64,000 bases of DNA from Candidatus Thorarchaeota archaeon. GTDB lineage: Archaea; Asgardarchaeota; Thorarchaeia; Thorarchaeales; Thorarchaeaceae. The stretch is taken from the NCBI GenBank assembly GCA_003345545.1, contig PRDH01000081.1, positions 1 to 64,000 of the forward strand, given 5' to 3'. The first letter of the stretch is position 1. Every line of letters begins with the position of its first letter. The position numbers were made by a program, and so were the translations under genes. The notes beneath the pieces are model-generated. The model searched no databases and was not told the DNA's origin. It saw only the letters and a program-made list of their open reading frames with translations. Shown here one piece after another: positions 34,932-52,339 of the stretch.

Positions 34932-36197
34932 ATGTCGGAAGAAAAGATAGGAAATCGAAACCTGGTCGTACTCGGCGCAATCATAGTACAGCTCTGCCTT
35001 GGATCTATCTATGCATGGGGGATATTTCAGAATGAGCTGTACAGGCTTGACGGCTTGTATGGATGGGATAAGTTGTGGTCTAATCTGCCATTTGCAGCTG
35101 GTCTTGCATCATTTGCGATTGTCATGATATATGCTGGTCGCAGACAAGACCGTGTAGGCCCCCGTAAGGTTGCCACACTTGGGGGTGTCCTACTAGGAAT
35201 AGGTGTAATCCTCTCTGGATTAGTTGACATACTTGGGTTCGGAGCTGATATGGTTCAAGGTACACTGTATCTGATAATCACCTATGGTATCGTTGGTGGT
35301 GCTGGAATTGGGTTTGCCTACGTCTGTCCAATTGCAGCTCTTGTAAAATGGTTCCCTGACAAAAAAGGATTCATGACCGGAATCGCAGTTGCTGGTTTTG
35401 GTGGCGGTGCATTGATTTTCAACTTTGTTGAACAGGGTCTAATCAGTTACTTTGGATATGTCATTGGATATCCATTGATGATTCTTGGAGCAATCTATCT
35501 CATATTCACAGTACTCGGTGCTCAACTGCTAGTCAATCCCCCGGTTGGTTGGCTTCCTCAGGGCTTCACACCTCCCGCAACAACAGCGGACGGCAAAGGT
35601 ACAGGATGCGTGCCAGGTGTAATGATTCGAACGAGTAGTTTTTGGGTTCTCTGGTTGATGTTCATCTTTGCTGCAACAGCTGGTCTGATGACCCTTGGCA
35701 ATGTTGTATCAGCAGCTAGAGGCATCGATCTGACCATCACAGCGTTCATCGCCGCTCTGATTCCAAGTATTATGGCAATCTTCAATGCAGCTGGAAGAAT
35801 AGTCTGGGGGACAGTTTCTGATAGGATTGGGAGAATCTCTACCTTCATCATGATGTTCTCGATTCTTGCCTTAGCTATGTTTGGACTTGCATTCATTCCA
35901 ACAGGGACTTCATGGATTGTGATCACTCTCATAGCATCTGTTGTAGGATTCTGCTTTGGAGGCAACTTTGCTCTATTCCCATCCGCAACAGCAGATTACT
36001 TCGGCTCTGCAAACGTTGGTAAAAACTACGGTGTCGTCTTCACTGCCTATGGAATTGCAGGAATTACTGGTGCTCTAGTTGCAGGCACATTTGGTCAAGC
36101 CTTCGGCTACTCAATGGCCTTTCTTGTAACAGGAATTCTTGCCGTTATAGCAGTACTACTGACTTTCGCTCTAAAATCGTGCAGAAAGAATGCATAA
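34932..36197 (+). CDS. OFA-family (oxalate/formate antiporter-like) MFS transporter
   Basis: GSIYAWG, KWFPDKKG..TG, GRIVWG.VSDRIGR, NYG.VFTAYG. Confidence 0.88.
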   Translation: MSEEKIGNRNLVVLGAIIVQLCLGSIYAWGIFQNELYRLDGLYGWDKLWSNLPFAAGLASFAIVMIYAGRRQDRVGPRKVATLGGVLLGIGVILSGLVDILGFGADMVQGTLYLIITYGIVGGAGIGFAYVCPIAALVKWFPDKKGFMTGIAVAGFGGGALIFNFVEQGLISYFGYVIGYPLMILGAIYLIFTVLGAQLLVNPPVGWLPQGFTPPATTADGKGTGCVPGVMIRTSSFWVLWLMFIFAATAGLMTLGNVVSAARGIDLTITAFIAALIPSIMAIFNAAGRIVWGTVSDRIGRISTFIMMFSILALAMFGLAFIPTGTSWIVITLIASVVGFCFGGNFALFPSATADYFGSANVGKNYGVVFTAYGIAGITGALVAGTFGQAFGYSMAFLVTGILAVIAVLLTFALKSCRKNA

Positions 36198-36207
36198 TCA
36201 GTACCAT

Positions 36208-36254
36208 GAGAGGTCAGAGGATGTGAATTCTCCGACCTCTTGTCACTCTTTTTT
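36208..36254 (+). terminator. Hairpin plus T-tract terminator
   Basis: GAGGTC...GACCTC stem followed by T6. Confidence 0.5.
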
Positions 36255-36355
36255 GGGAACTAACCCTCTGAACAATTTCCGTTCCGATTGGACAAGCTTC
36301 ATATAGTACATTTCTTGTGGCCGGTCAAATCATCTACCGGATTTGGTGACCGATT

Positions 36356-38344
36356 TTGTCAACAGATAAGAAGATTACAGTTTACAGCCAAGAGGAAAGG
36401 CATTTTCCACCTCCAAAGAGCTTCTCCAAGAAGGCTTACATAAAGAGCCAAGAAGAGCGGATGAAGATGTGGAAGGAGTCTATAGAAAAGCCTGACACCT
36501 TCTGGCTAAAGGCAGCAAAGGAATTGTGTTACTGGAAGAAGGAGCCGACCAAGGCTCTCGATTGGAAGGACCCCAAGAATGCAGTATTCACGTGGTTCGA
36601 AGACGGTGTGACCAACATGGCTTACAACTGTCTTGACAAGCATGTGAAAGCAGGTAAGGGCGATCAGATTGCACTCATCTGGCAGGGCGAGCCTTTGGAT
36701 GAGTCAAGGACCTTCACCTACAAACAGCTTCTCAGCGAGGTCAACAAGGCTGCGAATATTCTGAAGAGCCTCGGGGTCAAGAAGGGCGACAGAGTCACGA
36801 TCTATCTCCCGATGATTCCTGAGCTCGGAATCATCATGCTTGCATGTGTGAGGATTGGCGCGGTCCACAGCGTCGTCTTTGGCGGGTTCAGTGCTGATTC
36901 CTTGGTGGATAGGATTACAGACTCTCAAGGCAAGGTCCTAGTCACGGCTGATGGTTACTACCGCAGTGGCAAGGTTGTCCCACAAAAGGCAGGTGCTGAC
37001 AAAGCACTCGAATCTGTTCCTGTGGTAGAGAAGGTTCTTGTTATCAAGAGAGTTGGAATCGACGTTCCATGGGTCAAGGGCAGAGATGTCTGGTACCATG
37101 AAGAGCAAGCAAAAGTCAATGACAAGTGTGAGACCGAGTGGATGAAGGCTGAAGATCCCCTATTCATCCTCTATACTTCAGGTTCTACTGGCAAACCAAA
37201 GGGTGTGCTTCACACACTTGCGGGATTCATGGTCTACACAACTCAATCCTTTCTCTATATCTTTGACTGGCACCCTGGAGATGTCTACTGGTGTACTGCT
37301 GACATCGGCTGGATTACAGGTCATTCCTACATCTTGTATGGCCCTCTCTCAGCTGGAGCGACAACTCTGATGTATGAGTCGGTACCTACATACCCTGACA
37401 ATGACCGCTTCTGGCATGAAGTAGAACACTGGAAAGTGAACGAGTTCTACACGGCTCCTACTGCACTTCGTGCACTAATGAGATTCGGTGATGGCCCCGT
37501 ACTGAAGCACAATCTGTCAAGCCTGAAACTTCTCGGGACCGTTGGTGAGCCAATCAATCCGGAGGCCTGGATGTGGTATCATAGGGTAGTTGGCAAAGAG
37601 AAATGCCCGATTGTTGACACCTACTGGCAGACTGAAACGGGTGGTGTGATTCTCACACCTCTACCTGGTGCAACGTCAACAATCCCCGGTTCAGCCACTT
37701 TCCCCTACTTTGGTCTTGAGCCCCTCATCGTTGCCGAAGACGGAGTACCCGTAGGTCCAAACGAGGGTGGCTATCTCTGCTTCAAGAAACCTTGGCCAGG
37801 TCTCATGAGGACTGTCTATGGCAACCACAAACGATTCATCGAAACTTACTGGGTCCAGTTCAAGAACCCCGAAGACAAGAAGCCGATGTACTACACTGGT
37901 GATGGCGCTCGATTCAACCAAGATGGCTACTACTTTGTTATGGGCCGTCTAGACGATGTCTTGAAAGTTTCCGGCCATAGACTCGGAACTGCAGAGATTG
38001 AGTCTTCACTCGTCAAGCATCCTGCTGTTGCGGAGTGTGCAGTTGTTGGATTCCCACACGAGATCAAGGGAGAAGACATCTACTGCTTCGTGACCCTCAA
38101 GGTGGGTGTTGAGAAGACTGATGCGCTCCGTCAGGAACTCAAGAACCACGTTCGTAATGATGTAGGCCCCATCGCAACCCCGGCCAAGATACAGTTTGCA
38201 GATGCTTTACCCAAGACTCGCTCCGGCAAGATCATGCGCCGCATTCTGAAGCGCATTGCTGCGGGTCAGATAGACGATCTCGGTGATGTCACCACGTTGG
38301 CAGACCCATCAGTCGTCGATACCTTAGTCAGTGAGCGTCAGTAG
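36356..38344 (+). CDS. acs: AMP-forming acetyl-CoA synthetase
   Basis: YTSGSTGKPKG, WCTADIGWITGHSY, DTYWQTETGG, LPKTRSGKIMRR. Confidence 0.96.
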   Translation: MSTDKKITVYSQEERHFPPPKSFSKKAYIKSQEERMKMWKESIEKPDTFWLKAAKELCYWKKEPTKALDWKDPKNAVFTWFEDGVTNMAYNCLDKHVKAGKGDQIALIWQGEPLDESRTFTYKQLLSEVNKAANILKSLGVKKGDRVTIYLPMIPELGIIMLACVRIGAVHSVVFGGFSADSLVDRITDSQGKVLVTADGYYRSGKVVPQKAGADKALESVPVVEKVLVIKRVGIDVPWVKGRDVWYHEEQAKVNDKCETEWMKAEDPLFILYTSGSTGKPKGVLHTLAGFMVYTTQSFLYIFDWHPGDVYWCTADIGWITGHSYILYGPLSAGATTLMYESVPTYPDNDRFWHEVEHWKVNEFYTAPTALRALMRFGDGPVLKHNLSSLKLLGTVGEPINPEAWMWYHRVVGKEKCPIVDTYWQTETGGVILTPLPGATSTIPGSATFPYFGLEPLIVAEDGVPVGPNEGGYLCFKKPWPGLMRTVYGNHKRFIETYWVQFKNPEDKKPMYYTGDGARFNQDGYYFVMGRLDDVLKVSGHRLGTAEIESSLVKHPAVAECAVVGFPHEIKGEDIYCFVTLKVGVEKTDALRQELKNHVRNDVGPIATPAKIQFADALPKTRSGKIMRRILKRIAAGQIDDLGDVTTLADPSVVDTLVSERQ

Positions 38345-38359
38345 TAATTCGCTATTTTA

Positions 38360-38396
38360 CGAGAGACCTACAAAGGTCTCTCGAGTTCTTCTTTTT
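38360..38396 (+). terminator. Hairpin plus T-tract terminator after acs
   Basis: CGAGAGACCT-ACAA-AGGTCTCTCG perfect 10-bp stem, then TTCTTCTTTTT. Confidence 0.65.
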
Positions 38397-38704
38397 CAGA
38401 GTGATCACATGTTTCGACAACGCTCGGCTATCGAGCGGGTTCAGTCAGAGTTTCCGAGAAGGATAATGACCATTGATATACGCATCATCTCAAAGTCCGT
38501 GTCTACTACTGTATCTGACAAGAGATAAGCTACCAGACGGTCTTGGGACGTCTCAGAACGTTTCTTCCAATGATTTCTCTTTTGAGTTCGGCAATCACGA
38601 TACTCGTTCTTGGAAGCGTAGATGTGCTGCAATACTCTGCTGGTTTGGGGAAAACCATGACACCTCTCAAGCATTGGATTGAACATGGTGTTCGATACTG
38701 ATGT

Positions 38705-40801
38705 CTACTTGCAGATTTCGCCATACTTCCTCTTGAAGTTCGCAGCCATCTCCGGAAAACCATACTTGACCCAGGCTCTGTACGCCAAATCGAATGTTTC
38801 CCTTGCCAGTTGAGGGTACTTCTTGTTGTCCAGTCGCTTGCACGCGTCCATTAGTATCCCTACATACTGGCTCGACATCATGGCTACCTCGTAGTCGTAT
38901 TTTGTTGGGTCTTGAACTGCAATTCGGTTGAGTGCAATCACCCTGTCTACGACTTCTTCCAACTCCTTCGCCTTCAAGGACCCCGTGACCAGAGAGGCAT
39001 GAAAACTAGCAGACATTATATCATCCCTGCAGATTATGCCCCTAGAAACAAACCACTCTTGGGTGTCCAATATGACCTCCACGCATCTCTTGAGAACTAC
39101 TATCCTCTCATCGCGCTTGAGCAGCCTTGCAGCAAGCGCAGTCAGTGCAGTTACTGCATTTCCGAGGCTTGTGGCATAGGCCTCTGGTTTTGTTATCTGT
39201 TCTGCGTCAATCGTATTGACGTCAAGCGATTTCATAGCGATATAGATCAGACGCGTTTCATCTTCAGATAAGATGTCTGCCCTTGTAAGAATCGGACTAA
39301 GAGAATTCGCAACTACGAATACCGAGAATTGCACCTGTGCCTTCTGCCATTCTCCGTCTATGGTACTATAGATATCCAAGAGAAACTCTAATGATTGATT
39401 CAGATGCTGTTCGCGAGCATCGCCAGTTGCCAAGAAGTAGTACTCTGCGTAAGCAACACCTAGACTCTGGAATACACTATCTAGTGTGTAGTTGAAGATG
39501 GGAATCTCAGTTGTCAGTAGGCTCCTGAAGTAGTCTCGATACAACATGAGGACTTCCTCGAGTATCTTCCTGCGTTCGTCTATTGTGAGCACAGGGGATT
39601 CAGCCAGGGCGGTAAGAATCGCGATGTAATTCTGCAGCTTCAGAGAAGCTGTGACACCAATCTCGATTCCCTTTCCCTCTTTCTTTAACTCCCATAACAG
39701 ATCCGGGTCAAGCACCCAGTTGATATTTCCAAGGATACCTGTAATCTTCGACTTATATGCTCCTAACTCGTCACGAAAACCATCATAGCTTGTGATTGAG
39801 TAGAGTTTTTTGAATAACTTGCCTCGTTCATCAATAGCCTCAATGAATGTACAATACACATCTGACTTCTCTCTATACATATCGAGTATTCTCGCGGCGA
39901 ACTCCGGGTAATCTACAACTCTCACATCAAAAAACAGAAAACCAAGTAGAAGATGCTCATCATCATTCCTGAACTCAAAATGCTTCACTGCCTCTCTGAA
40001 TGCCCGAGAGTAATCAGCAGGAATGAGGTCCCCAGCTGTAAAGCCTACGAGTGTCCGGGCAAGATCTGTGAAAGGATAGTCCTGTGGAAGAGCTGCGGCA
40101 ATTCTCTTCAGTTCTGCCATCGGAGGTGAAACCGCCTTAGTCATGGTATGCGTCAATGCACCCATCTTGAGACAGAAGACGCTGGCCAGTGCCCCCTCTT
40201 GACTCATCGCCACAGCACATGCTCTATCGAACTCTCCCTGAAGGGCCAATTCAAGTGCATCATCGAGAGTTCCCTTCGCTTTTGTCTTGAGATTATTCCA
40301 CTTCTCAATGGATTCTGCCCTACTGAAAAGTGACTCCACGTCCTGAAGAGCCTTGGAGAGTTTCTTATCTTGCATCAAGACCTTCAGTGTGGGATTCCAG
40401 ATGCCGTATATTGTTTCCGCGAATCCTGTTTCAATGTGATCTCGTGTATAGGTATGAAGAATCTGATCAATTGTCCTTGTGTGAGTGTCACCCACTAATC
40501 CATCTGCTGCCACTAAGTCCGAGTCATCAATTGCATCTGCTATCACTCGGAGGAGGCTATCCATGTAGTCTTCTGCCCTGTCTACAAGTGCGACAACTGT
40601 GTAGCCCTTCTTGCACTCCGTCACAATCAGAGTGTTCTCCCTAAAACCCAGCTTTCTGACCTCTCCGCTCCCTATGACATTACTCAGTGCCTTTGCAGCC
40701 TCTATCAGGGGGCCAAGGATCATCTCACCATCTGCATCCATTGAGCTCTTGATCTTGATAGGGACGCCGCCTGTGGTCAGGACACCGATGAGCCGAATCA
40801 T
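38705..40801 (-). CDS. Longin-like N-terminal domain plus large helical region (eukaryotic-signature-like protein)
   Basis: N-terminal beta-beta(GVPI)-alpha-beta-beta-beta-alpha pattern typical of longin domains; remainder looks all-alpha. Confidence 0.6.
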   Translation of the reverse strand: MIRLIGVLTTGGVPIKIKSSMDADGEMILGPLIEAAKALSNVIGSGEVRKLGFRENTLIVTECKKGYTVVALVDRAEDYMDSLLRVIADAIDDSDLVAADGLVGDTHTRTIDQILHTYTRDHIETGFAETIYGIWNPTLKVLMQDKKLSKALQDVESLFSRAESIEKWNNLKTKAKGTLDDALELALQGEFDRACAVAMSQEGALASVFCLKMGALTHTMTKAVSPPMAELKRIAAALPQDYPFTDLARTLVGFTAGDLIPADYSRAFREAVKHFEFRNDDEHLLLGFLFFDVRVVDYPEFAARILDMYREKSDVYCTFIEAIDERGKLFKKLYSITSYDGFRDELGAYKSKITGILGNINWVLDPDLLWELKKEGKGIEIGVTASLKLQNYIAILTALAESPVLTIDERRKILEEVLMLYRDYFRSLLTTEIPIFNYTLDSVFQSLGVAYAEYYFLATGDAREQHLNQSLEFLLDIYSTIDGEWQKAQVQFSVFVVANSLSPILTRADILSEDETRLIYIAMKSLDVNTIDAEQITKPEAYATSLGNAVTALTALAARLLKRDERIVVLKRCVEVILDTQEWFVSRGIICRDDIMSASFHASLVTGSLKAKELEEVVDRVIALNRIAVQDPTKYDYEVAMMSSQYVGILMDACKRLDNKKYPQLARETFDLAYRAWVKYGFPEMAANFKRKYGEICK

Positions 40802-41045
40802 ATGGGCACTCCTCTATAGACCTCTCTACATACTATAGCATGTGAAAAGGGTTCTTACGACTTAGTGCTGTGACTCAGTCTACTGATGCTAATACTCCTT
40901 CAGAATCCGGAGAAAAACAGGCATAGCTCTTGAAGCAAGCCTGATCATGCAATGATTCGGCATCATTTCCCTCTGGCGGGAGTCTTAAATATCGCAATTG
41001 AATTCAGAAGGTATTACTCTCCCGAAGACTGAATTGAATACGGCG

Positions 41046-41921
41046 ATGAAAATGTGTCAATGGTGTTTCAAACACGGCGATGGCGGCAAGTGGTACAACA
41101 ATGCCCGGCTCTACCGGAACGAACTGGCTGATGAGTATAATGCGAGTGAGTACCTGCAGGAACAGTGGAAGAACATGGAAACCCTCTTTATTCGTAAGAT
41201 TATGGGATTCAACTCCATTGGCCTAGGTTACAAGATGCAGATGCCAATCATAGGGCGAGTCATTCGCAAGGTCGTTGAGGCTCAGATACATAGTGAGAAG
41301 AAGAACAGAAATCCAGTACGTGCCGACGGCCACTTCGGACAGGTTGTCCCCCTCGAAGATGCTCAGCACATCCTTGGGAATCTTGCGGCTGAACCTATCA
41401 TCAAGAACTACTGTGTCTGCAGATGGATGCAGAGAGGAGTAAAGGATGCAGTCTGCATCAACTTCGGTCAGTTGTCAGGGATAATTGAGAAATGCACGCG
41501 ATATATCCCTGAGGGCGTGAAGTATAAACTCGACCGTGAAGAAGCAATCCAAGCGCTTCAAGAGCAGAACCAAAAAGGCTACGTTGCGACGGTCTGGTTC
41601 CAACCAATACCCTACATCAATGCGGTCTGTTCCTGTGAGAGTCCCGAGTGCGGAGGTCTCAGACTGAGAAACGACTTCAATCTGAGGACCGTGTACAAGG
41701 GTGAGTACGTCATCAACATTGATATTGACAAATGCCAAGGCTGCCAGTCGTGCGTCAAGATGTGTCAGTTCAGCGCGCTCAGATATCTTCCATCTGTGAA
41801 GCGGACCATTGTAGACCTAGACAAGTGTTTTGGGTGTGGTGTCTGTCGGCATGCATGTAAGCATGATGCGCTCAGCTTAGTCCCGAGAGAGTCTGTCCCC
41901 GGGCAAGCCGGGAGGTACTGA
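41046..41921 (+). CDS. 4Fe-4S dicluster protein with additional Cys-rich N-terminal region
   Basis: CQGCQSCVKMC and CFGCGVCRHAC; N-terminal CQWC..HG, CVCR, CSC...CGG. Confidence 0.85.
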   Translation: MKMCQWCFKHGDGGKWYNNARLYRNELADEYNASEYLQEQWKNMETLFIRKIMGFNSIGLGYKMQMPIIGRVIRKVVEAQIHSEKKNRNPVRADGHFGQVVPLEDAQHILGNLAAEPIIKNYCVCRWMQRGVKDAVCINFGQLSGIIEKCTRYIPEGVKYKLDREEAIQALQEQNQKGYVATVWFQPIPYINAVCSCESPECGGLRLRNDFNLRTVYKGEYVINIDIDKCQGCQSCVKMCQFSALRYLPSVKRTIVDLDKCFGCGVCRHACKHDALSLVPRESVPGQAGRY

Positions 41922-41931
41922 GGTGTGTGAA

Positions 41932-42216
41932 ATGGTCAAGAGAACGAGCATCAAGATTGACTATTCCAAATGTCATAGTGGAGCTAGCACAGACCCGCGC
42001 GAGTGCAGAAAATGTCTCTTTGTCTGTGACCCCGCAGTATATCTGATGCATCCGACGTTGGAGAACCACCCAGACCCCTATAATCCTGAGATCTGGCGCA
42101 TTGACGCGATTTGGCTCTCAAAATGCACTGGATGCATGAAATGTGTCGAAGTCTGCCCGGAGAAAGCAATCACAGTGAAACCTGGAGACTCGCTCATGAC
42201 GATCAGGGGATACTGA
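41932..42216 (+). CDS. Ferredoxin-like 4Fe-4S protein
   Basis: C...CRKCLFVCDP and CTGCMKCVEVCP. Confidence 0.85.
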   Translation: MVKRTSIKIDYSKCHSGASTDPRECRKCLFVCDPAVYLMHPTLENHPDPYNPEIWRIDAIWLSKCTGCMKCVEVCPEKAITVKPGDSLMTIRGY

Positions 42217-43195
42217 GAGTAGTTATCGGTCGTGATTGAAGAATCACAATCTCACCGTCTGATTTGATACACCACTCGATGTCTTGGGGTGTTCCCATCA
42301 TCTGCTCAATCTCCAGTCCTATCTGTGCCACCTTCAGCACTAATCGATTATCCAGAGTGAACTCCTCACGTTTCTCCCTGGGCGTATCGTGTGTTGTGGC
42401 CTTAGCGCTGTTCTCTGAGACTGAAGCAATACTAGTAATCATCTTCGTTCCTAGTTCTCTCTGTAGGACACGTCGCGGTTTCTTGGATAGTATGAAGGTG
42501 TCGGGAATGACTCTCCCCGATACTAGTGTTTCTCCTAGTCCCCAAGTTGCGTTGATCAACATCTCGTTCGTGTTGCTATTCACTACATTAGCTGTGAACA
42601 TTACACCTGAAACAACGGCAGGTATCATCTCCTGAACTACTACAGCCATCTTGACTTGTTTCAATGGAATTCCCTTGGACTTCAGATAGATTGCTGCGCT
42701 TGGAGAGTATGCTGATCTCCAGACCCGTTTCACAGCTTCAAATATGTCTGAAGTGTTTCTGATACAGAGAAGAGTTTCTGCTTGACCTGCAAAGGAAATA
42801 TCACTGCGGTCTTCGATTGTGGCTGACGAACGAACCGCATAACCTGCCTTAGAGCCGGTTGTTGATTCCTGCATACTCTGAAGTCCCTTCATAATCTCGG
42901 ATTTCAGATCCTCCCCCAACTGACAGAGACTCACCAGTGTCTGGATCTTTTCTGCAAGAAGAAGCATCTCTTCGAAGTCATCCACAGATTCGATTTTATC
43001 AAGCAGTCTGATCACATCTGGAATTCTATCTCTCATCCGAACGAAGTTATGACTCGAGATTGAAAACCCTCTTGGTGTACGAAACCCCTCACGGCGCAGA
43101 TGGGCAAGGCTCGTTGCCTTACCACCATGAGTTTCAATATCCTCTGGTCGAATGCTGTCCAGAGATTGAATCAGAGGAATCTTGCAGTTGTCCAA
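42203..43195 (-). CDS. Stand-alone PEP-synthase/PPDK N-terminal ATP-grasp domain
   Basis: GGKATSL, AVRSSATIED...SFAGQ, VVVQEMI, GLGETLVSG, PQDIEW, LQSRPIT, then stop. Confidence 0.9.
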   Translation of the reverse strand: MDNCKIPLIQSLDSIRPEDIETHGGKATSLAHLRREGFRTPRGFSISSHNFVRMRDRIPDVIRLLDKIESVDDFEEMLLLAEKIQTLVSLCQLGEDLKSEIMKGLQSMQESTTGSKAGYAVRSSATIEDRSDISFAGQAETLLCIRNTSDIFEAVKRVWRSAYSPSAAIYLKSKGIPLKQVKMAVVVQEMIPAVVSGVMFTANVVNSNTNEMLINATWGLGETLVSGRVIPDTFILSKKPRRVLQRELGTKMITSIASVSENSAKATTHDTPREKREEFTLDNRLVLKVAQIGLEIEQMMGTPQDIEWCIKSDGEIVILQSRPITTLSIP

Positions 43196-43212
43196 GTGTT
43201 GATGCGCCTCAA

Positions 43213-43563
43213 CTATTCGCCTACATAGAGAACCCCTGAAGCACCCTCTTCAGGCTTGATCATGGCATGTTTTCCATTGAGCCCTTCTGGGTCCTCTATC
43301 TTCACCCCCATCAGTGCCGGTATCTCAAACTCACGAGTGACAATGGCTAGGTGTGATCCCAATGCCCCAGACCTGCACACAACGCCTGCCAATCTTGAGA
43401 GAACTGGCGCAAGGAAAGTGGTGCCTGCATCATCTACGAGTACTATCTTTCCATCGGGCCCTTCTTTCAAAAGCTTGACCACTTCCTGAACAGAGGTAAT
43501 GTACCTGAGTTCACCCTCTGCACTCAGTTTCAATGAGATAAGTCCATCTCCAACTCGTTTCAA
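43213..43563 (-). CDS. Stand-alone PEP-utiliser swivel (phospho-His) domain
   Basis: AGVVCRSGALGSHLAIVTREFEIPALMG. Confidence 0.88.
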   Translation of the reverse strand: MKRVGDGLISLKLSAEGELRYITSVQEVVKLLKEGPDGKIVLVDDAGTTFLAPVLSRLAGVVCRSGALGSHLAIVTREFEIPALMGVKIEDPEGLNGKHAMIKPEEGASGVLYVGE

Positions 43564-43691
43564 CAGAAATCGGCCACCCGGGGCTTTCTTTGTTTAGGAA
43601 TATCCGAATTATAAGACTGCTTATGCTTTCGAACAACTTAATACTGACAGTGACTGCGGCATCATTTCAATGAGCATTGCTCTCTGTGGAG

Positions 43692-44858
43692 ATGAATGCA
43701 TTGGAAACCAGCGAGATTAACCAACAACTAACTCACCTGTCTCAAGTCTTCTCTGATATTCTTGCGGAACGTGGTCTTCTCGAGTCAAAGCTCTTCCCTG
43801 TGAACGAGTACATCTGTGTGAGTTTCTACCAGACGTATGAACATCTCTTTGATGTGATGACTCAGGTGTGGAAGAAGATTACTCCTGAGGTGCTTGCCAA
43901 GAAGAGCAAGACGCTTCTCTCAGAGATTCAGGCACTGTCAATCACCTACCTCTGGCTTTACTATGGTCTGGCACGGATGGGTGTGATTTTCAACAAATGT
44001 AATAGTGACCCCTCAAAAGAACCCACTGAGCGTCAGGAACAGTGGAAATGGATGCTTGAGCAGTGGTACAGACTAGGCACGAACTACTTCAACACAGGCA
44101 AGCCCACGGTTGCATCATCGGGAGGGGTGAACCTTGCCCTTCGCAATGACAGTATCAGCTGGTTGAAAGACCATCTAGAACCCGTGAGTGAGGAACAAGT
44201 ACGCAAGATTCGTCGTCAGATTGGTGCGGTCGATCTCTATGCCTTCATGGATGAGTGCGAGGCTAGAGCAAAGATCATTGATCACGGTCCGTACCCCGTT
44301 GGGCACAACGAGGTCCTCATCATCTCAGAGTATACTCATCTTCATGATGGAAAAGAGGCACTATGGCTACCTTGGTCTGACACAGAATCGAAACTTCCAT
44401 CCGCATCGCTTGGCATCGCTATGACCATGCGTGACTGTACGACCTTCTTCAATGACGTCGGTACTGCGACCGTTCAGCCTGGTGACTACTCCAAGCTGGT
44501 TACTAATGCTTGTGCATACACAAAACATGGCTCCAAGATTGTGGCACTAGGCTTGGATGAGCTCTCAGCATTTGCTGAGGCAGCTGATGCTGCTCAGACA
44601 GAGCTATACCTGAAGTTTGCAGAATGGGACAAGAAGACACTCATGATTGCGGGAGCTGAAGCATACTGGAGGTGCTATGCTCGCTATACAAATCAGGTTG
44701 GAATCACTAGTAAGATAGACTGGAAGATATCTCAGGCCGTCATAGACGAACATGTGCCGTTCTTCATGGATAATGATGCGGACCCAGCTTTCATGCGATT
44801 TGGCCGATTCGATGATGAAATGGAGGCAGACCCAACTCTCTACTTGCTTCCCGAGTAG
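43692..44858 (+). CDS. Uncharacterised soluble protein (candidate acceptor-binding subunit of the split dikinase)
   Basis: Long ORF of about 390 aa, divergent from the His-domain gene; no known motif recognised. Confidence 0.75.
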   Translation: MNALETSEINQQLTHLSQVFSDILAERGLLESKLFPVNEYICVSFYQTYEHLFDVMTQVWKKITPEVLAKKSKTLLSEIQALSITYLWLYYGLARMGVIFNKCNSDPSKEPTERQEQWKWMLEQWYRLGTNYFNTGKPTVASSGGVNLALRNDSISWLKDHLEPVSEEQVRKIRRQIGAVDLYAFMDECEARAKIIDHGPYPVGHNEVLIISEYTHLHDGKEALWLPWSDTESKLPSASLGIAMTMRDCTTFFNDVGTATVQPGDYSKLVTNACAYTKHGSKIVALGLDELSAFAEAADAAQTELYLKFAEWDKKTLMIAGAEAYWRCYARYTNQVGITSKIDWKISQAVIDEHVPFFMDNDADPAFMRFGRFDDEMEADPTLYLLPE

Positions 44859-44870
44859 GAGTGAACGCAG

Positions 44871-45767
44871 TTGAGAAGACACCGTTTCACACAGAGCGAC
44901 GAATATGCGCATGAGGCAGATGAGCGCCCTGATTGGCGTGAGAGCTACTACTTCAACTGGGTCGATCTTGATGCACGGATATCTGGCTTCTCTACTATCG
45001 GCCTTCTTCCGAACACCAACAAGCGTGAGTTTGTGTGTGCACTCTTCTATGATGATGAGCGTGAGGTCCATTTCAATGAGCCACTCAGCTCAATCTCTGA
45101 TGACCTATCAGAGTCGTTGACCGATGGCGTACTATCGTACAACTTGGTCAAACCGATGAAGGAGTGGAGAATCACTTACAGAGGCAAGAGTCTCAATGCA
45201 GACATCATCTGGTCTGCTCGATTCCCACCTTATGACTTTGGCAGTGGAAGTGGGACATCCTGGGCCGGCCATTTCGAGCAATCTGGTGTGCCCCATGGTA
45301 CAGTCAAGTTCTCAGATGGGACTGCTGTGACGATACAGGGGTACGGCGAGCGTGACAAGAGCTGGGGCTCTCGAGACTGGCACATTGAGAGCTGGTTTGC
45401 TCTGCATGCACAGTTTGATGATATGTCAATAGGACTTCGACGTGACGTGGTCAAGGGTGAAGAGCATCCCTCTGGCGGAATCAGCAATATCGATGGCAAC
45501 GTTCCTATCAAGAGCGTGAAACTGGTGACAGAGACACACAAGGAGTCTGGAATACCCATCGGAGCGAAGGTCCGGATCATAGGCAGGGATGATGCTGTCT
45601 ACAATCTCAAGTCCCATCTGATTAGCCCCAAGAGTTTCGCGCGATTCGCTCGAGAGTTTCCGGGTGGCACCACCGAGCTCTACGAGGGGATGGCAGTCCA
45701 TGAGTGCAAGGAACTGGGTACCACTGGCACAGGATTACTTGAGTGGTTGTTCACTCATCCCAAGTAG
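44871..45767 (+). CDS. Beta-rich AttH/tocopherol-cyclase/CrtC-like protein
   Basis: WRESYYFNW, GHFEQSG, GERDKSWG.RDW, G.GLLEW pattern. Confidence 0.6.
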   Translation: MRRHRFTQSDEYAHEADERPDWRESYYFNWVDLDARISGFSTIGLLPNTNKREFVCALFYDDEREVHFNEPLSSISDDLSESLTDGVLSYNLVKPMKEWRITYRGKSLNADIIWSARFPPYDFGSGSGTSWAGHFEQSGVPHGTVKFSDGTAVTIQGYGERDKSWGSRDWHIESWFALHAQFDDMSIGLRRDVVKGEEHPSGGISNIDGNVPIKSVKLVTETHKESGIPIGAKVRIIGRDDAVYNLKSHLISPKSFARFAREFPGGTTELYEGMAVHECKELGTTGTGLLEWLFTHPK

Positions 45768-45829
45768 TGACCCCTGTAGGCAATCCAGCAGCGATCTCAC
45801 CCCAGTTTGTTGTGACTCATCATAGTCTA

Positions 45830-47539
45830 TCATCTGAATGACAGTATTGATGCCAGTAACCATGCACATATCATTGCGTTGACCATCGCGCCAAGCCATC
45901 TGTTTCCTGTCAGACGGTATCCAAACATAGTGATCAGGGTGCATACTGCGAACCATGGTGTAAAGGCATAGAAGAACAACCACGAGTACCCAATCATACC
46001 TGGAATGACCGGCGCACCCGCAATCAGACCACCAAGAAACTCGATAGCGATCAGAGCGAGATATGGAATGCACTTGATGAAGACTGCTGTTACAGACCAC
46101 TCGAGCTGCACTCTTGCCCAGCTCCCCGTACTCTTTGGCAACATGATACTCGTGAACCAAGTTCCTTCTACGACGGAGTACACAAGAAATACAACAAAGT
46201 ATAGGGGTACTAGAATCGCTTGCAGCAATGTGAGGTCATGAAGCCCGGGCAGGAAACATCTCAGGTCCAATACGAAACCGAGATCGACCATCAAGGTCAG
46301 GGCGTATAGCCAGACAAAGACGATAGCTGTCAAGAGGACAAGTCTGACGATATCCGGAAGGCCTCTCTCAGTCCCTACTGATACCAATTTGCGAAGGCTG
46401 AGCTGTGGATTGCCTCGGCGTCTTAGCAGCAATGTAAGTGCCCCAGCCGCAATCAGCCCGCTCCCCAACATCCATGACATCACTGGCAGTCCATTGTATT
46501 GTGGGAAGGGAATGACTAATTGCAGTACTGTTCCAAGAATCAAGAAAGGAAAGAATGTTGCAACCCCGATTGCGCCGTAAAGTGTCCCATATGCCAGAAT
46601 GGATCCTGTGCTCTGTGCTTTCTCCTGAGGTAGAGTTCTACGCAGGTCCGAGAAAAATGGCAGGCTCAGTAGTATTGCCAGCAGAGGGAAGATTGTGAGT
46701 ATGGCACCAAGCAGTCCGAATAGGCCACCGATCAACCACGCTGAAAACAGAAGAATCGAACTGTCTATCCAGTGTTCGTCTTCAACGCCTCCCTTTAGGC
46801 TCATCCTCATCCAGTCAACACTCTCGCTCACGATGGTGGGGTCTATGGTTTCAAAGAGGTGATTGGTCGGAGGGAAAACAGCTCTCCTTGCTGTATTATT
46901 TGCGAAGTCACCATATGTGATACCAGGTACAACCCCAGTCACATTGAAGTATGGGTCAAGTTTAGTATGATTGCCGGGATAGCTCGAGAGTGAGTCAAAG
47001 CTACCGACTGCTACAAGCGTATTTGGTATGTAAACTGCAGTTGGGCTGAAGCCTGATCCAACAAGAACCAATGCACGCACATACACGCTTGAGCCTGCTA
47101 TGGCAGTCCACGCGATACCGCCTCCCATGCTGTGACCAATCAATCCAATCTCTGTGTTGTCGACATAGTCCAGTGAAGCGATATAGTCAAGTGCTGCAGG
47201 TCCACTTCCTGTACCTGGGTCAGAGTTGCCATGACCGTTGGCATCAATCGTGAGCACGACAAAGCCTCGTCGTGCGAGTTCAATGCCAAACGCCATCAGC
47301 CACTCCTTGTTCTGCAATGAGCCATGAATCACGACTACGCCCGGGAGAGGATTAGCGCTGGTGCCGTATATTGGACGTTGTAGTGTACTGTGAATTGTAG
47401 AGCCGTCCGCAGCCTGAAAATCGACTTCGGTGACACTCACAGTCCCATGACCGCTCTGGGTATATGCCGCCACACTGACCCCTGCTGACAGCATTATGAG
47501 ACCAAGGATCAGTACTAGGTATCTCCTTCTGATTGCCAT
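45830..47539 (-). CDS. Membrane-bound alpha/beta hydrolase with multi-TM C-terminus
   Basis: N-terminal signal anchor, VIHG, GHSMGG nucleophile elbow, about 8 C-terminal TM. Confidence 0.85.
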   Translation of the reverse strand: MAIRRRYLVLILGLIMLSAGVSVAAYTQSGHGTVSVTEVDFQAADGSTIHSTLQRPIYGTSANPLPGVVVIHGSLQNKEWLMAFGIELARRGFVVLTIDANGHGNSDPGTGSGPAALDYIASLDYVDNTEIGLIGHSMGGGIAWTAIAGSSVYVRALVLVGSGFSPTAVYIPNTLVAVGSFDSLSSYPGNHTKLDPYFNVTGVVPGITYGDFANNTARRAVFPPTNHLFETIDPTIVSESVDWMRMSLKGGVEDEHWIDSSILLFSAWLIGGLFGLLGAILTIFPLLAILLSLPFFSDLRRTLPQEKAQSTGSILAYGTLYGAIGVATFFPFLILGTVLQLVIPFPQYNGLPVMSWMLGSGLIAAGALTLLLRRRGNPQLSLRKLVSVGTERGLPDIVRLVLLTAIVFVWLYALTLMVDLGFVLDLRCFLPGLHDLTLLQAILVPLYFVVFLVYSVVEGTWFTSIMLPKSTGSWARVQLEWSVTAVFIKCIPYLALIAIEFLGGLIAGAPVIPGMIGYSWLFFYAFTPWFAVCTLITMFGYRLTGNRWLGAMVNAMICAWLLASILSFR

Positions 47540-47632
47540 CGACGAGAGAACTCCTGAGATTTGTGAGTCCGATGTAACGACTCCGGTCTTTTATTTACCC
47601 CGATACTTGATAGTATTCATATAAATCACAGA

Positions 47633-48283
47633 ATGACAACTCCCAGTACCATGCCTACCTGGGATAGTATCTTCAGAGAACAAGGGTACTTGTTTGTTGA
47701 TCCTCACCCAGATATGGCAAGGATTGCTGTTCTCTTCAAGGAACATGGTGTCAAGAGAGTCCTTGACCTAGGTTGTGGCACTGGCCGACATCTTGTGTAT
47801 CTATCAAGACTGGACTTTCAGATGGATGGCCTTGATTCTTCCTCACATGCTCTTGCACTCTCCAATAGATGGTTGGATGAAGAGGGTCTTTCTGCAAGCC
47901 TGAGAGAGCATCTGATAGAACGGCCATTTCCTTACCCAGACGGAATGTTCGACGCTCTGATTTCGATACAAGTGATTCATCACAATCTGCTCAAGGACAT
48001 TGTCTTCACAGTTTCTGAGATCGAACGTGTTCTGAAACCTGGCGCTTTCGTCTTCATCACTGTTCCCACACTAGGGCTGAAGCGGGAGAATCATGAGGAG
48101 GACTGGCAGCTTCGTCAAGTCGAGGATGGAACCTACATTCCAATGGGAGGCCGTGAGAGTGGTATACCTCATCACTACTTCACCGAGAATGAACTACGTG
48201 AAGTGTTCGGCAGTTTTGAAATTCTTGAGATCTTTCTGGACAGTACTGGCCACAGGTGTCTCTTGGGTTCTAAGAGAGTGTAG
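47633..48283 (+). CDS. Class I SAM-dependent methyltransferase
   Basis: VLDLGCGTGRH, RVLKPG. Confidence 0.9.
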   Translation: MTTPSTMPTWDSIFREQGYLFVDPHPDMARIAVLFKEHGVKRVLDLGCGTGRHLVYLSRLDFQMDGLDSSSHALALSNRWLDEEGLSASLREHLIERPFPYPDGMFDALISIQVIHHNLLKDIVFTVSEIERVLKPGAFVFITVPTLGLKRENHEEDWQLRQVEDGTYIPMGGRESGIPHHYFTENELREVFGSFEILEIFLDSTGHRCLLGSKRV

Positions 48284-48293
48284 GCGCTGATGG

Positions 48294-49574
48294 TCACTCT
48301 AGCCCGAACACGGGGAATATGAGTTCCTTCACCTTATTGATGGCATCATCAACAGCACGCTTGACCTTGGGATAGTGCTTCTCGTCCATCCTACTTGGCC
48401 TGTCAGTCCAGCCATCCCGCCCCATCTTGAGGCCATACTTCTCAATCAGCACTAGCCATTTGTTCGGCAGTACTGGCGGCAGTGCCATATCTGCAAGACC
48501 TGCAAGCACTATTGTCCATACCTTCGCTGTTGTTACAGGGTTGTAGCCTCCACCCCCTACAGCAACAAGCTTTCTTTCTCCCTCATGTACAAGCTGTCGG
48601 ACTGTCATAGTCAGGCGATGGTATGTATCAAAGGTGAGCATTAGGTCTGCTAAGGGATCGCCAAAATGTGCATCCGCTCCGACGTTCCAGAACACAAGGT
48701 CTGGTTTGTAGACCTGCCAGATGGGAACAATGGCATCTTCGAAGGCCCTCCAGTACTCAACATCATCGGTCAGTGGTGGAAGGGGGACATTGACGGAGTA
48801 GCCTTTTCCTTCACCTATCCCCATTTCTTCTGGTTTTCCAGTTCCAGGGAAGAATCCCATGCTCTTCTCGTGAAGTGATATGGTGAGAACATCCGGGTCG
48901 GCATAGAACGCTTTCTGTGTACCATCACCATGATGAACATCCGTGTCGAGATACAGAACCTTCTTGCCCGGATTCACTTCTTTGTATTTCTTGATGGCAA
49001 CTACCGTGTCATTGAGGTAACAGAATCCTGCAGCTTGGCTCTCCATAGCATGATGGAAACCGCCAACAAACGACATCGCATTTTTGAACTTCCCCTTGGC
49101 AACACCTATTGTGGCATCAATCACTCCCCCTACTGGTAGACGTGCGTACCTATGAACCCCCGGAAAAACAGGGCAATCATCAGTATCAAGACCAAATCGG
49201 GCAGAGAATGCTGACCCTGTGTTCCCAAAGAGATCAAGCGTTTCTACAAAGGATGGATCGTGGAAGGTCAGCAATTCCTCCTTGGTCGCCTCCCTCATTT
49301 GCTGGAGAGAGATCTTCGAACTCTCGGTCATTCCTGCCATCACTGGAAGACTCCACGTGACATCAAGACGTGCTCTATTCCAGAAGGGATTGACTACTGC
49401 CTTCATCCTCTCCAGCTCATCGATACCATCTAGAGCTAAGAGGCTCTCAGGACTATAGAGGGCTGTGCGTTCAGTCACTTGGTTCCCACCGCATGCAAAT
49501 AGGTACTGCCTTTCTCCAACATGAAGTCTACTTATGTGTGATGGCATATCACTCTTCGAAAGCCTCATTATCAT
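48294..49574 (-). CDS. Zn-dependent deacetylase, AcuC/HDAC class I-like
   Basis: GGFHHA, GFCYLND, DTDVHHGDG, FFPGTG, NVPLPP, GADAH..DPL, GGGGY. Confidence 0.92.
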   Translation of the reverse strand: MIMRLSKSDMPSHISRLHVGERQYLFACGGNQVTERTALYSPESLLALDGIDELERMKAVVNPFWNRARLDVTWSLPVMAGMTESSKISLQQMREATKEELLTFHDPSFVETLDLFGNTGSAFSARFGLDTDDCPVFPGVHRYARLPVGGVIDATIGVAKGKFKNAMSFVGGFHHAMESQAAGFCYLNDTVVAIKKYKEVNPGKKVLYLDTDVHHGDGTQKAFYADPDVLTISLHEKSMGFFPGTGKPEEMGIGEGKGYSVNVPLPPLTDDVEYWRAFEDAIVPIWQVYKPDLVFWNVGADAHFGDPLADLMLTFDTYHRLTMTVRQLVHEGERKLVAVGGGGYNPVTTAKVWTIVLAGLADMALPPVLPNKWLVLIEKYGLKMGRDGWTDRPSRMDEKHYPKVKRAVDDAINKVKELIFPVFGLE

Positions 49575-49596
49575 GAATGGAGATTGAAGATGTGTT

Positions 49597-50610
49597 ATGT
49601 CGAAGTATGAACTTCTGAAGGAAACATTTCTTGGAAACCTTGGGGAGCAGATACCTGTTTCCCTATGGAAGCATCACCCCGACCTGGATCGTACCCCTGA
49701 GGGACTGGCAAATGCTGAGATTGAGTTTCACAGAAAGTTTGACCATGATCTCCTCAAAGTATCCTTCTTTGGTCACTATCCATGCATTGACTTTGGATGT
49801 ACTGCAGAATACGATGGTGCCAGCACTGGGTCTACTACATTGACTTCTTATCCCATTAAGGACTCAGCTGGCTGGGAGGTCCTTGAGCCAGTCGATGTGA
49901 ATGCCGGTGAATTCGGCAACCAGGTTAGGGCAGTAGAACTGATTCAGAGGTATGCACACGGGAAAGTCCCAACTATGGCCACCCTCTTCGATCCTGCCAT
50001 GGTTGCTGATAGACTGTGTGGTCAGAATCTAGTCAAGTATGCGGATGAGGTCCCTGTCATCCTGAAGAGAGCTCTTGATCTGATCTGTGACGTGATGATT
50101 GATTTTGCACGAGCTACGCTTGAATCAGGGGCTGATGGACTGTTCATCGCCAGCCAGCACTCGACTCTTTCATCAATTTCAGATAAACACTATAATACCT
50201 TCATCTATCCCTATCATCTGAGGATGGTTTCCAAGCTGCGTAGCAAGGCCAAGTTCATCATCATGCATCTCCATACGAGAGAGGAGAGAGAAGAGATTCG
50301 ATTCAACAGAATCGCTGAAACTCCCGGGGTTGTTGGCATCAACTGGGAGGATCGGAGTTCTTCGCTGTCACTCAGAGAAGGCAAGAGAAGATCACGAAAG
50401 ACTGTGCTGGGCGGTATCGACCATAATGGCGTATTGAGGACCGGGACGCCCCATGAGGCCGAGAAACAGGTCTTGAATGCAGTGGATGAGGCTGGGTTCG
50501 AACACCTCATTGTGGCTCCAGGCTGCGTAATCACTGTCGATACACCGCCTGAAAACGTACTAGCTGTCAGGGATGCAATACGGTCCATCGACCCATTCAG
50601 AGGCAAATAG
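49597..50610 (+). CDS. Uroporphyrinogen decarboxylase (URO-D/MtaA) superfamily protein
   Basis: PVSLWKH, GADGLFIA, VLGGID, IVAPGCVI. Confidence 0.8.
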   Translation: MSKYELLKETFLGNLGEQIPVSLWKHHPDLDRTPEGLANAEIEFHRKFDHDLLKVSFFGHYPCIDFGCTAEYDGASTGSTTLTSYPIKDSAGWEVLEPVDVNAGEFGNQVRAVELIQRYAHGKVPTMATLFDPAMVADRLCGQNLVKYADEVPVILKRALDLICDVMIDFARATLESGADGLFIASQHSTLSSISDKHYNTFIYPYHLRMVSKLRSKAKFIIMHLHTREEREEIRFNRIAETPGVVGINWEDRSSSLSLREGKRRSRKTVLGGIDHNGVLRTGTPHEAEKQVLNAVDEAGFEHLIVAPGCVITVDTPPENVLAVRDAIRSIDPFRGK

Positions 50611-50620
50611 GAGGAAGAGA

Positions 50621-52339
50621 TTGTTGACAAGAAACGCTGAGGTTGCACGAGTCCTGAAGGAAATAGGCCTGCTTCTAGAGTTCGAGGGAAAGGAACCCTT
50701 CAAGGTCAAGGCATACCAGCGAGCTGTCAGATCCATCGCAGCTCTTGGTGAAGATGTTGCTGTACTAGCAGAACGTCGAGAGCTCACCAGTATTGCAGGC
50801 ATTGGTAAAGGTCTTGCTGAAGTCATCACGAGCTATCTCGAAACCGGGCATGTTGCGGTTCTCGATGAATTGAGAACACGTGTTCCAATAAGAATCATGG
50901 AGCTCGATGCTATTCCGGGCGTTGGCATCAAGACAATCAAGTTGGTCTATGAGAGGCTAGGAGTCACTAATCTGGACTCACTCGAGAAAGCCGCCAACGA
51001 GAACAAGCTATCACAGCTGCCTGGTCTTGGAGCGAAGACACAAGAACAGATCATTGAGGGGATTCAAGTCGCGCGAGGTGGTCTGAGCAGGACCCTTCTA
51101 GCTGATGCGCTGTCAATCGCCAGTGACGTGGAGAAACAACTTCGCAGGTTACCCGTGGTTCGCCAGTTCGTCATTGCAGGTTCCATGCGTAGGAGAAAGG
51201 AAACGATTGGTGACATTGACATACTTGTCGAAGCGACTGATTCAAAGCTAGTGATGGACACATTTGTAACCCTTAAGGAGGTGTCAAGTATCTCTGCCCA
51301 TGGTGAGACCAAATCCTCAGTACGGCTCTCAGGTGGAATTCAGGTGGACCTCCGAGTGCTGCCTGCTGACAGCTTTGGTGCTGGTCTTCAATACTTCACT
51401 GGCAGTATCGACCACAATGTGAAACTACGTGCCATTGCACAGAAGAAGGGGCACAGACTGAACGAGTACGGTCTCTTTAGAGGGGAAGAGAAGATTGCTG
51501 GAAAAGACGAGTCTGGCATATACCGCAGCTTGGGAATGGACACAATCCCACCAGAGCTCAGAGAAGACTGGGGTGAGATAGAGGCAGCTCAGAACGGGAC
51601 TCTACCTACGCTCATCGAGTTGAAGGATATACGTGGCGACCTTCACAGCCACACTGATCAGTCTGATGGAAAGAATACCATTGATGAGATGCTGGATGCG
51701 GCCCAAGCAAAGAGGTACGAATACTATTGCGTATCGGACCACACGCAGAGCCTCACGATTGCCAATGGAATGGATGAGGACCGATTGTTGAGGCGCATTG
51801 ATGAGATTGATGAACTGAATGCCTCTGGTCGCTGGAAGATGAAGATTCTCAAGGGTGCAGAGGTGGATATCTTGTCTGATGGTTCATTAGACATCAAGGA
51901 TGAGGTCCTGTCTCAACTCGACATTGTCACAGCGTCAATCCACAGTAGAATGAAGGATGACCGGAAGACCATGACTGAACGTGTCTGCCGAGCTCTTGAG
52001 AGCAAATATGTGCATATCCTCGGTCACCCTACTGGTCGCATGCTTTTGAAGAGAACAGAGTTTGAGATTGACCTTGAGGCAGTATTTGAGTCCGCTAAGA
52101 AGAACAATATTGTGATGGAGTTGAATGCACACCCAGAGCGTCTCGATCTCAATGCCAGCAATTTGCGGGCTGCAACCAAGGTGGGCCTGCGCATTGCAGT
52201 TAACACTGACGCTCACTGGACAACAGAACTCGACCATATGCAATTCGGGGTCTACCAAGCACGGCGTGGCTGGCTGTCAAGAGACGATGTCATCAATACC
52301 TATCCCCTGAAGAAGATGATGAGCACAATCAGAAAGTAA
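50621..52339 (+). CDS. polX: DNA polymerase X with PHP domain
   Basis: AGSMRR.KETIGDID, QVDLR, YFTGS..HN; PHP motifs HSHT..SDG, SDH, NTDAH. Confidence 0.95.
   Translation: MLTRNAEVARVLKEIGLLLEFEGKEPFKVKAYQRAVRSIAALGEDVAVLAERRELTSIAGIGKGLAEVITSYLETGHVAVLDELRTRVPIRIMELDAIPGVGIKTIKLVYERLGVTNLDSLEKAANENKLSQLPGLGAKTQEQIIEGIQVARGGLSRTLLADALSIASDVEKQLRRLPVVRQFVIAGSMRRRKETIGDIDILVEATDSKLVMDTFVTLKEVSSISAHGETKSSVRLSGGIQVDLRVLPADSFGAGLQYFTGSIDHNVKLRAIAQKKGHRLNEYGLFRGEEKIAGKDESGIYRSLGMDTIPPELREDWGEIEAAQNGTLPTLIELKDIRGDLHSHTDQSDGKNTIDEMLDAAQAKRYEYYCVSDHTQSLTIANGMDEDRLLRRIDEIDELNASGRWKMKILKGAEVDILSDGSLDIKDEVLSQLDIVTASIHSRMKDDRKTMTERVCRALESKYVHILGHPTGRMLLKRTEFEIDLEAVFESAKKNNIVMELNAHPERLDLNASNLRAATKVGLRIAVNTDAHWTTELDHMQFGVYQARRGWLSRDDVINTYPLKKMMSTIRK

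Follow-up and report, generated by a model that had tools for sequence, protein, structure and literature searches.

A candidate three-part histidine dikinase encoded beside a 25-phosphosteroid lyase homologue in Thorarchaeota

Introduction

In Sterolibacterium denitrificans, the kinase 25-HSK phosphorylates a tertiary side-chain alcohol and 25-phosphosteroid lyase (25-PSL) then eliminates the phosphate, so that the two steps amount to an ATP-dependent dehydration (PMC8449060, PMC11061730). A second group of described systems, the two-component dikinases HpeHI, CreHI, and PpsAB, is established to use a separate ATP-grasp subunit (PMC12167813). Here, we describe a locus that combines features of both. 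It lies on contig PRDH01000081.1 of Candidatus Thorarchaeota archaeon GCA_003345545.1, a 2.69-Mb Asgard bin, in a stretch of 64,000 nucleotides that was analysed as a whole (the window). A stand-alone ATP-grasp gene and a gene for a free phospho-histidine swivel domain are encoded there divergently from a gene pair, the first for a protein of about 390 amino acids (aa) from an undescribed family and the second for a 298-aa homologue of 25-PSL. Because this fourth gene product is homologous to 25-PSL and keeps its RD(K/R)SWG motif, we favour, with moderate confidence, the reading that a multi-part small-molecule dikinase and a phosphoester lyase together make up an ATP-driven dehydratase.

The kinase side resembles HpeHI, CreHI, and PpsAB in its separate ATP-grasp subunit, its phospho-histidine swivel carrier, and its lack of a pyruvate-binding barrel, and a Ser precedes the catalytic His as it does in PpsA and CreH. 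In those systems, however, the swivel is fused C-terminally to a rifampin-binding-type domain and no lyase is linked, whereas here the swivel is a free protein (with N-terminal fusions in some relatives), the presumed acceptor subunit belongs to a family with no detectable similarity to that domain, and a lyase homologue is encoded at the locus. Single-chain dikinases of the rifampin phosphotransferase (RPH) and PigC type, annotated by the "PEP synthase" PRK06241 models, share the same ATP-grasp and swivel chemistry but carry ATP-grasp, acceptor domain, and swivel in one polypeptide instead of three, and their acceptor domain is of another family. Phosphoenolpyruvate (PEP) synthase and pyruvate phosphate dikinase (PPDK) have homologous ATP-grasp and swivel domains, in contrast to which the locus lacks the PEP/pyruvate triosephosphate isomerase (TIM) barrel. 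Thus, the locus falls outside the PEP synthase/PPDK group because it has no barrel, and outside the PpsAB/HpeHI class because its swivel is free and its presumed acceptor protein is not detectably similar. With the Sterolibacterium pair it shares the sequence of a kinase and then a phosphate-eliminating lyase, but 25-HSK is one 40-kDa phosphotransferase, whose relatives include actinobacterial phosphotransferases, whereas the kinase here would be an unrelated three-protein phospho-histidine relay. Moreover, the kinase and lyase genes are unlinked in Sterolibacterium (PMC8449060) and tightly linked here.

A free swivel and a stand-alone ATP-grasp subunit

In the 330-aa ATP-grasp protein, PPDK_N is the sole Pfam domain (residues 23-327, E 3e-82), and the protein aligns to the PEP synthase, RPH, and PigC models solely within their first ~320 positions; it terminates just past LQSRPIT. 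Upstream of its gene on this strand, after a gap of 17 bases, lies the gene of the 116-aa protein, a PEP-utilizers mobile domain (E 4e-10) with the motif GSHLAIVTRE. In this protein, His71 and the SH..I(V)..RE motif are invariant in an alignment of 25 homologues (A3). A PEP/pyruvate TIM barrel (PEP-utilizers_C, PF02896) is absent from the locus; the sole genomic copy belongs to a complete PPDK (913-aa frame, contig C26), besides which the same genome encodes an RPH-type single-chain enzyme on another contig. A first-pass annotation, made from the sequence of the window without database searches, had described this arrangement of a truncated ATP-grasp domain, a free phospho-histidine domain, a missing TIM barrel, and a tight divergent gene pair across a gap of about 130 bp, and each of these points agrees with the open reading frames (ORFs) and domain matches (Table 1). 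It had also named fragments of a frameshifted ppsA as a possible source of error. We rejected that origin because both small genes are intact ORFs conserved as such in dozens of genomes, and because the swivel precedes ATP-grasp here, opposite to the arrangement of these domains in ppsA. The start of the ~390-aa gene may be read in two ways, giving frames from 43677 (393 aa) or 43692 (388 aa), with ATG at 43692 and TTG at 43701 as candidate start codons.

Table 1. Positions of the genes and other features of the locus within the window
Feature	Position	Strand	Remarks
Stand-alone ATP-grasp (PPDK_N) nucleotide-binding subunit, 330 aa	42203-43195	-	Pfam PF01326; proposed ATP-dependent loader of the swivel His
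Free phospho-histidine swivel carrier, 116 aa	43213-43563	-	Pfam PF00391; His71 codon at 43351-43353
Divergent intergenic region, 128 bp	43564-43691	.	Presumed shared promoter region; sequence read
Protein of ~388 aa, undescribed family (P0003)	43692-44858	+	Proposed acceptor-binding and phosphotransfer subunit
DUF7065+DUF7064 protein, 298 aa (P0004), 25-phosphosteroid lyase homologue	44871-45767	+	Proposed phosphate-eliminating C-O lyase
Cys-rich protein with C-terminal 2x[4Fe-4S] domain	40998-41921	+	Fer4; possible accessory redox partner
Ferredoxin-like protein, 97 aa	41923-42216	+	Fer4 matches; invariably paired with the 40998-41921 gene

The fourth gene encodes a homologue of 25-phosphosteroid lyase

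The second gene of the divergent pair, which the first-pass annotation had left without a function, encodes a protein matching DUF7065 (E 1e-13) and DUF7064, with a weak match to the Rv3169 family. Its AlphaFold2 model is of high quality (predicted local distance difference test [pLDDT] 94), and the top Foldseek matches are the 25-PSL entries 9g4c, 9g2i, and 9fzn (E 3e-14 to 1e-12, template-modelling [TM] score 0.72), the best of them being 9g4c_B (E 3e-14, probability 1.00), with the two-lobed beta-barrel fold of 25-PSL. Kievitone hydratase, AttH, and the fungal Diels-Alderases CghA, Fsa2, and Phm7 rank lower, and 25-PSL leads the other structures by four orders of magnitude in E-value. Consistent with this, a profile of 26 orthologues (A2) searched against the PDB sequences found 25-PSL (9fzn) as its sole significant match (E 9e-7), with the motifs H..., YYFN, Q, and RD(K/R)SWG.R in alignment, and Pfam families of the CrtC type had no match in the 298-aa protein. 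Thus, by fold and by sequence profile, this protein is a true, distant homologue of 25-PSL. The Asp of the RD(K/R)SWG motif (Asp162) is invariant in A2 and is probably catalytic, since the product-complex entry 9g4c carries Asn in its place. By analogy, the protein is proposed to eliminate phosphate from an alkyl phosphoester.

Our literature search found no paper that mentions DUF7065, none on the ~390-aa family, and no functional study of Rv3169. In M. tuberculosis, Rv3169 adjoins Rv3168, which encodes a kinase of the aminoglycoside phosphotransferase (APH) fold. No gene in the scanned part of the window (34932-52339) matched the APH family.

Conserved linkage of the swivel, the ~390-aa protein, and the lyase homologue

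A scan of species genomes for the ~390-aa gene returned 68 loci, all archaeal, which span Thorarchaeota, Hermodarchaeota, Promethearchaeota, Bathyarchaeia, Brockarchaeota, Methanomethylicia, and other Thermoproteota. We searched these and three other loci (71 in total) with the four window proteins by tblastn; many of them come from related Thorarchaeota and are not independent of each other. The DUF7065 gene follows the ~390-aa gene in every locus with downstream sequence, and the swivel gene is divergent and adjacent in 60 of the 68 loci having upstream sequence, a layout kept across phyla (Thorarchaeota, Hodarchaeota, Bathyarchaeota, Brockarchaeota, Methanomethylicia, and Thermoproteota). 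The flanking genes are wholly different between phyla, and the linkage is therefore more than inherited synteny. Around the Hermodarchaeal orthologue of the ~390-aa gene, no further recurrent partner was seen.

The module is patchily distributed, with 78 carriers among the 301 Asgard genomes sampled and 12 among the 24 of its own genus, and it is missing even from bins that are 93-95% complete. Such a pattern fits an accessory rather than a core function.

The same partners recur, differently ordered, among distant relatives. Of ten longer relatives of the ~390-aa protein, four carry an N-terminal swivel fused to the 390-aa-type domain (P0152, P0187, P0253, and P0262), and among eight non-orthologous contexts, the swivel is adjacent or fused in seven and a PSL-like gene is present in four. 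A Hermodarchaeon (G005, contig C46) has a co-directional operon of swivel, ATP-grasp, a paralogue of the ~390-aa protein (30% identity), and a DUF7065/DUF7064 protein (L076:4410-7997), as well as an orthologous pair of ~390-aa and PSL-like genes elsewhere without a swivel gene of its own. In the bacterial assembly GCA_902829765.1 (L074/L075:3944-9963), genes for a DUF7065 protein, a swivel, a 726-aa protein related to the 390-aa family, and a protein combining ATP-grasp and swivel stand side by side within a cluster of polyketide synthase, acyl carrier protein, and beta-ketoacyl synthase III (KAS III) genes. A more distant module of ATP-grasp, swivel, and a 374-aa relative, found on metagenome contigs of the Joint Genome Institute (JGI; L078:1968-7096 and L079), is flanked on one side by a squalene-hopene-cyclase-like gene and on the other by a gene for a 317-aa protein. 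The latter was tried as a PSL-like protein and rejected, as it weakly resembles a cis-prenyltransferase (undecaprenyl pyrophosphate [UPP] synthase) instead; a 380-aa protein of another locus (L081) was likewise rejected as a relative of the ~390-aa protein.

Pairing of a dikinase with a PSL-like gene extends to single-chain enzymes. On contig C3 of the same Thorarchaeota genome, a 909-aa RPH/PigC-type "PEP synthase" gene (L084:1255-3984, + strand) is followed after 3 nucleotides by a 324-aa PSL-like gene of the DUF7065 type (L084:3987-4961, + strand), and in Brockarchaeota/Thermoproteota and Bathyarchaeia loci, RPH-type or HpeH-type genes adjoin PSL paralogues. Since both this genome and those of related archaea pair single-chain dikinases with PSL-like genes, the dikinase-lyase pairing is shown to be a general theme.

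In a separate context (L073:4885-10281), the neighbours of a 794-aa fused swivel/390-aa-type protein are two APH-fold kinases, a tyrosine-phosphatase-like gene, a P450, and dehydrogenases. The cluster seems to be actinobacterial in style and to combine the two kinds of kinase that are known to supply PSL-type lyases.

The ~390-aa family

Searches of Pfam and NCBIfam with the whole ~390-aa protein and with its halves, up to E 10, gave no match, and no nucleotide- or PEP-binding motif was recognised in them. A word-indexed search returned 244 homologues at 59-98% identity, all archaeal (from Thorarchaeota, Hodarchaeota, and Methanomethylicaceae) and all unnamed, and a profile search of 1.84 billion cluster representatives returned 219 relatives of the wider family. 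The AlphaFold2 model (pLDDT 81, predicted TM score 0.82) consists of a helical bundle and an antiparallel sheet. Foldseek matched it to nothing in the PDB at E<=0.001, with RPH not among the matches, and VIA-align against 48,161 chains gave a top Z of 2.8, again with RPH not listed, although a rifampin-binding fold may still be shared. An hhalign comparison of the family with the rifampin-binding-type middle domains of 14 RPH/HpeH-like proteins gave probabilities of 0.1-0.2%.

In 90 diverse members, whose median identity to the window protein is 21%, Arg32, Arg100, Arg197, Gly204-Pro-Tyr206, and Trp233 are conserved, and Arg197 is found in 100% of them. Arginines conserved to this degree would suit a phosphoryl-handling site. 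The first-pass annotation had proposed that this protein is the acceptor-binding subunit of a three-part dikinase and that its homologues should occur with the swivel. The linkage across Asgard and TACK archaea, the fusions, and the Hermodarchaeal operon all lend support to that proposal, and it is this gene context that suggests the acceptor-binding role itself. A predicted complex of the swivel (A3) with the ~390-aa protein (A1) scored 0.62, compared with 0.54 for one unrelated control, and we use the result neither for nor against an interaction.

A proposed route of phosphorylation and elimination

From the domain identities, the gene linkage, the swivel/390-aa fusions, and the lyase homology, we infer a route of three catalytic steps. 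First, the ATP-grasp protein would bind ATP and (pyro)phosphorylate His71 of the free swivel, as suggested by the chemistry of PEP synthase, RPH, PpsAB, and HpeHI. Second, the phospho-swivel would dock on the ~390-aa protein, which would hold the acceptor alcohol and catalyse phosphoryl transfer, filling the place of the rifampin-binding-type domain in RPH and HpeH. Third, the DUF7065/DUF7064 protein would eliminate phosphate from the resulting phosphoester, yielding an alkene or, in broader terms, a product derived from a carbocation. The first two steps are modelled on these dikinases because their chemistry is established for PpsAB, HpeHI, and RPH, and the third on 25-PSL. The iron-sulfur protein pair encoded next to the module may contribute a redox reaction that precedes or follows these steps. 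Most likely, the dikinase acts on an otherwise unreactive hydroxyl, which is phosphorylated and lost when the phosphate is expelled. The first-pass annotation had called the locus a phosphorylation system; the kinase relay is supported, but the whole is better described as a kinase plus a lyase, since the 298-aa protein is a 25-PSL homologue.

We know of no steroid metabolism in the host archaea, and the substrate therefore presumably differs from that of 25-HSK and 25-PSL. The fold class of PSL, CrtC, and kievitone hydratase acts on prenyl termini. This fold class, the module flanked by squalene-hopene-cyclase-like and cis-prenyltransferase-like genes, and the module in the polyketide synthase cluster all hint at an isoprenoid-type compound, and our guess is a hydrophobic isoprenoid-type tertiary or allylic alcohol. 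A bolder proposal, which we consider possible yet somewhat short of probable, is that the ~390-aa family has a new fold and supplies the catalytic domain on the acceptor side in what would be a third architectural class of swivel-histidine dikinases. With the PSL-type lyase, and perhaps the iron-sulfur pair as a reductase, such an enzyme would remove unactivated, probably tertiary isoprenoid, hydroxyls without oxygen in Asgard and TACK archaea and some bacteria.

If this is true, the Sterolibacterium steroid pathway would be one known instance of a general "phosphorylate and eliminate" logic. Swivel-histidine dikinases would gain a new acceptor domain family with a new fold, and cassettes of dikinase and phosphoester lyase would offer anaerobic archaea and bacterial secondary-metabolite clusters a widespread and modular route to ATP-driven dehydration. 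DUF7065/DUF7064 (the Rv3169 family) and several hundred archaeal proteins annotated as "hypothetical" would also receive a testable function, and the finding could point to unrecognised ways in which isoprenoid or other hydrophobic alcohols are transformed anaerobically in sediments rich in Thorarchaeia and Bathyarchaeia. The enzymes could serve as biocatalysts for the dehydration of tertiary alcohols.

Alternative readings

Several findings weigh against an ATP-driven dehydratase of this composition. In the ~390-aa protein, no fold or motif was recognised that would establish substrate binding or phosphotransfer. The 298-aa protein is only ~16% identical to 25-PSL, and its fold is common to hydratases and Diels-Alderases, so that other chemistry is possible. 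Hermodarchaeota and Promethearchaeota loci hold the pair of ~390-aa and lyase genes with no swivel gene within 10 kb, and at least one genome of this type has a full paralogous operon elsewhere. Among the 71 loci, the ATP-grasp gene is adjacent in 30, exclusively from Thorarchaeota and Hodarchaeota. In two genomes with the triad of swivel, ~390-aa protein, and lyase, from Methanomethylicota (G002, L046) and Bathyarchaeota (G004, L067), PPDK_N occurs only in a canonical PEP synthase. The latter genome includes a 1.09-Mb contig and also encodes an HpeH-like protein without ATP-grasp. In such genomes, the swivel may be charged in trans by PEP synthase or loaded from a different donor, unless the bins are simply incomplete.

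These genomes bring up the possibility that the triad is the core of the system and that the ATP-grasp subunit is a lineage-specific addition. The ~390-aa protein would then load the swivel from PEP, pyrophosphate, polyphosphate, or another donor (its conserved arginines would be equally suited to an anionic one), or PEP synthase would charge the swivel in trans while another protein, possibly the beta-barrel one, binds the acceptor. It is indeed the triad, not the tetrad, that is conserved across phyla. However, ATP-grasp genes accompany the module not only in the 30 Thorarchaeota and Hodarchaeota loci but also in the Hermodarchaeal operon, in the L078 module, and in the bacterial L074 cluster, the genomes lacking one are metagenome bins that could be incomplete, and the ~390-aa protein shows none of the nucleotide- or PEP-binding motifs searched for. 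We regard a triad core as unlikely.

About equally unlikely, in our view, is a different role for the beta-barrel protein, in which it would not be a phosphate lyase but a hydratase or cyclase (as are CrtC, kievitone hydratase, and the Diels-Alderases) or a terpene-synthase-like enzyme with phosphate as the leaving group, in a pathway that builds or remodels an isoprenoid. The fold also occurs in kievitone hydratase, AttH, and the pericyclases CghA, Fsa2, and Phm7, and the two genomic settings that hint at an isoprenoid substrate would suit such a pathway as well. Set against this are the lead of 25-PSL in the structure search, its place as the sole solved protein found by sequence with the RD(K/R)SWG motif conserved, and the lack of a match to CrtC-type Pfam families.

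The dehydratase reading must also be held against a phenol or aromatic dikinase like PpsAB, CreHI, or HpeHI, in which phosphorylation would trap or activate an aromatic growth substrate and the beta-barrel protein would be unrelated or auxiliary. A separate ATP-grasp subunit and a Ser before the catalytic His, as in PpsA and CreH (PMC12167813), are what such an enzyme would have, and the patchy, accessory-like distribution would suit a catabolic trait. But the ~390-aa family lacks profile similarity to the rifampin-binding-type domains, the fold searches returned no RPH, and neither a UbiD-type carboxylase nor any other aromatic-pathway gene is found in the conserved neighbourhood. Moreover, the invariable partner is related to an alkyl-phosphoester lyase, and elimination of this kind is impossible for aryl phosphates. 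An aromatic dikinase is distinctly improbable.

Finally, we give hardly any credence to the view that the divergent gene pairs are functionally unrelated neighbours kept by inherited synteny, since, for all the kinship among the Thorarchaeota loci and the lack of a swivel gene in some Asgard ones, the arrangement persists between phyla with completely different flanks, swivel and 390-aa domains are fused in some proteins, and the same genes come together again, in a different order, in paralogous and bacterial versions.

The iron-sulfur gene pair and other neighbours

Convergent with the module lies a pair of iron-sulfur protein genes. In the larger protein, the Fer4 domains occupy residues 239-292, and the N-terminal 230 aa matched no family and no solved relative by sequence. 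Its annotated TTG start is probably too early, with Met19 at 41052 the likely start, giving 289 aa. Selenocysteine was rejected, since the in-frame TGA codons seen in genome-search matches fall upstream of this real start. The pair recurs beside the module at 51-95% identity in three different arrangements, the 289-aa protein at 63-95% identity in Thorarchaeota, Brockarchaeota/Thermoproteota, and Bathyarchaeia loci, and within the genus of the window genome, its presence coincides exactly with that of the ~390-aa gene (12 of 24 genomes). The 97-aa ferredoxin accompanies the 289-aa protein in every locus found, including those in which the pair stands alone. An obligate part in the module was not upheld, because the pair also occurs without it in other Asgard genomes and as a paralogue in the window genome (C26:42695-43345); membership in the module is therefore no more than possible. 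One stand-alone pair, in another Asgard family (L089:5143-7450), directly adjoins a gene of the 3-beta-hydroxysteroid dehydrogenase/isomerase family.

On the other side, a gene for a 569-aa alpha/beta hydrolase (45830-47539, - strand) converges on the PSL-like gene, an arrangement conserved in Thorarchaeota, and a relative of this hydrolase (~40% identity) lies 4-8 kb away in Hermodarchaeota and Promethearchaeota loci. Beyond it, a methyltransferase, a deacetylase of the histone deacetylase (HDAC) type, and a gene resembling uroporphyrinogen decarboxylase (URO-D) follow in a synteny conserved among Thorarchaeota.

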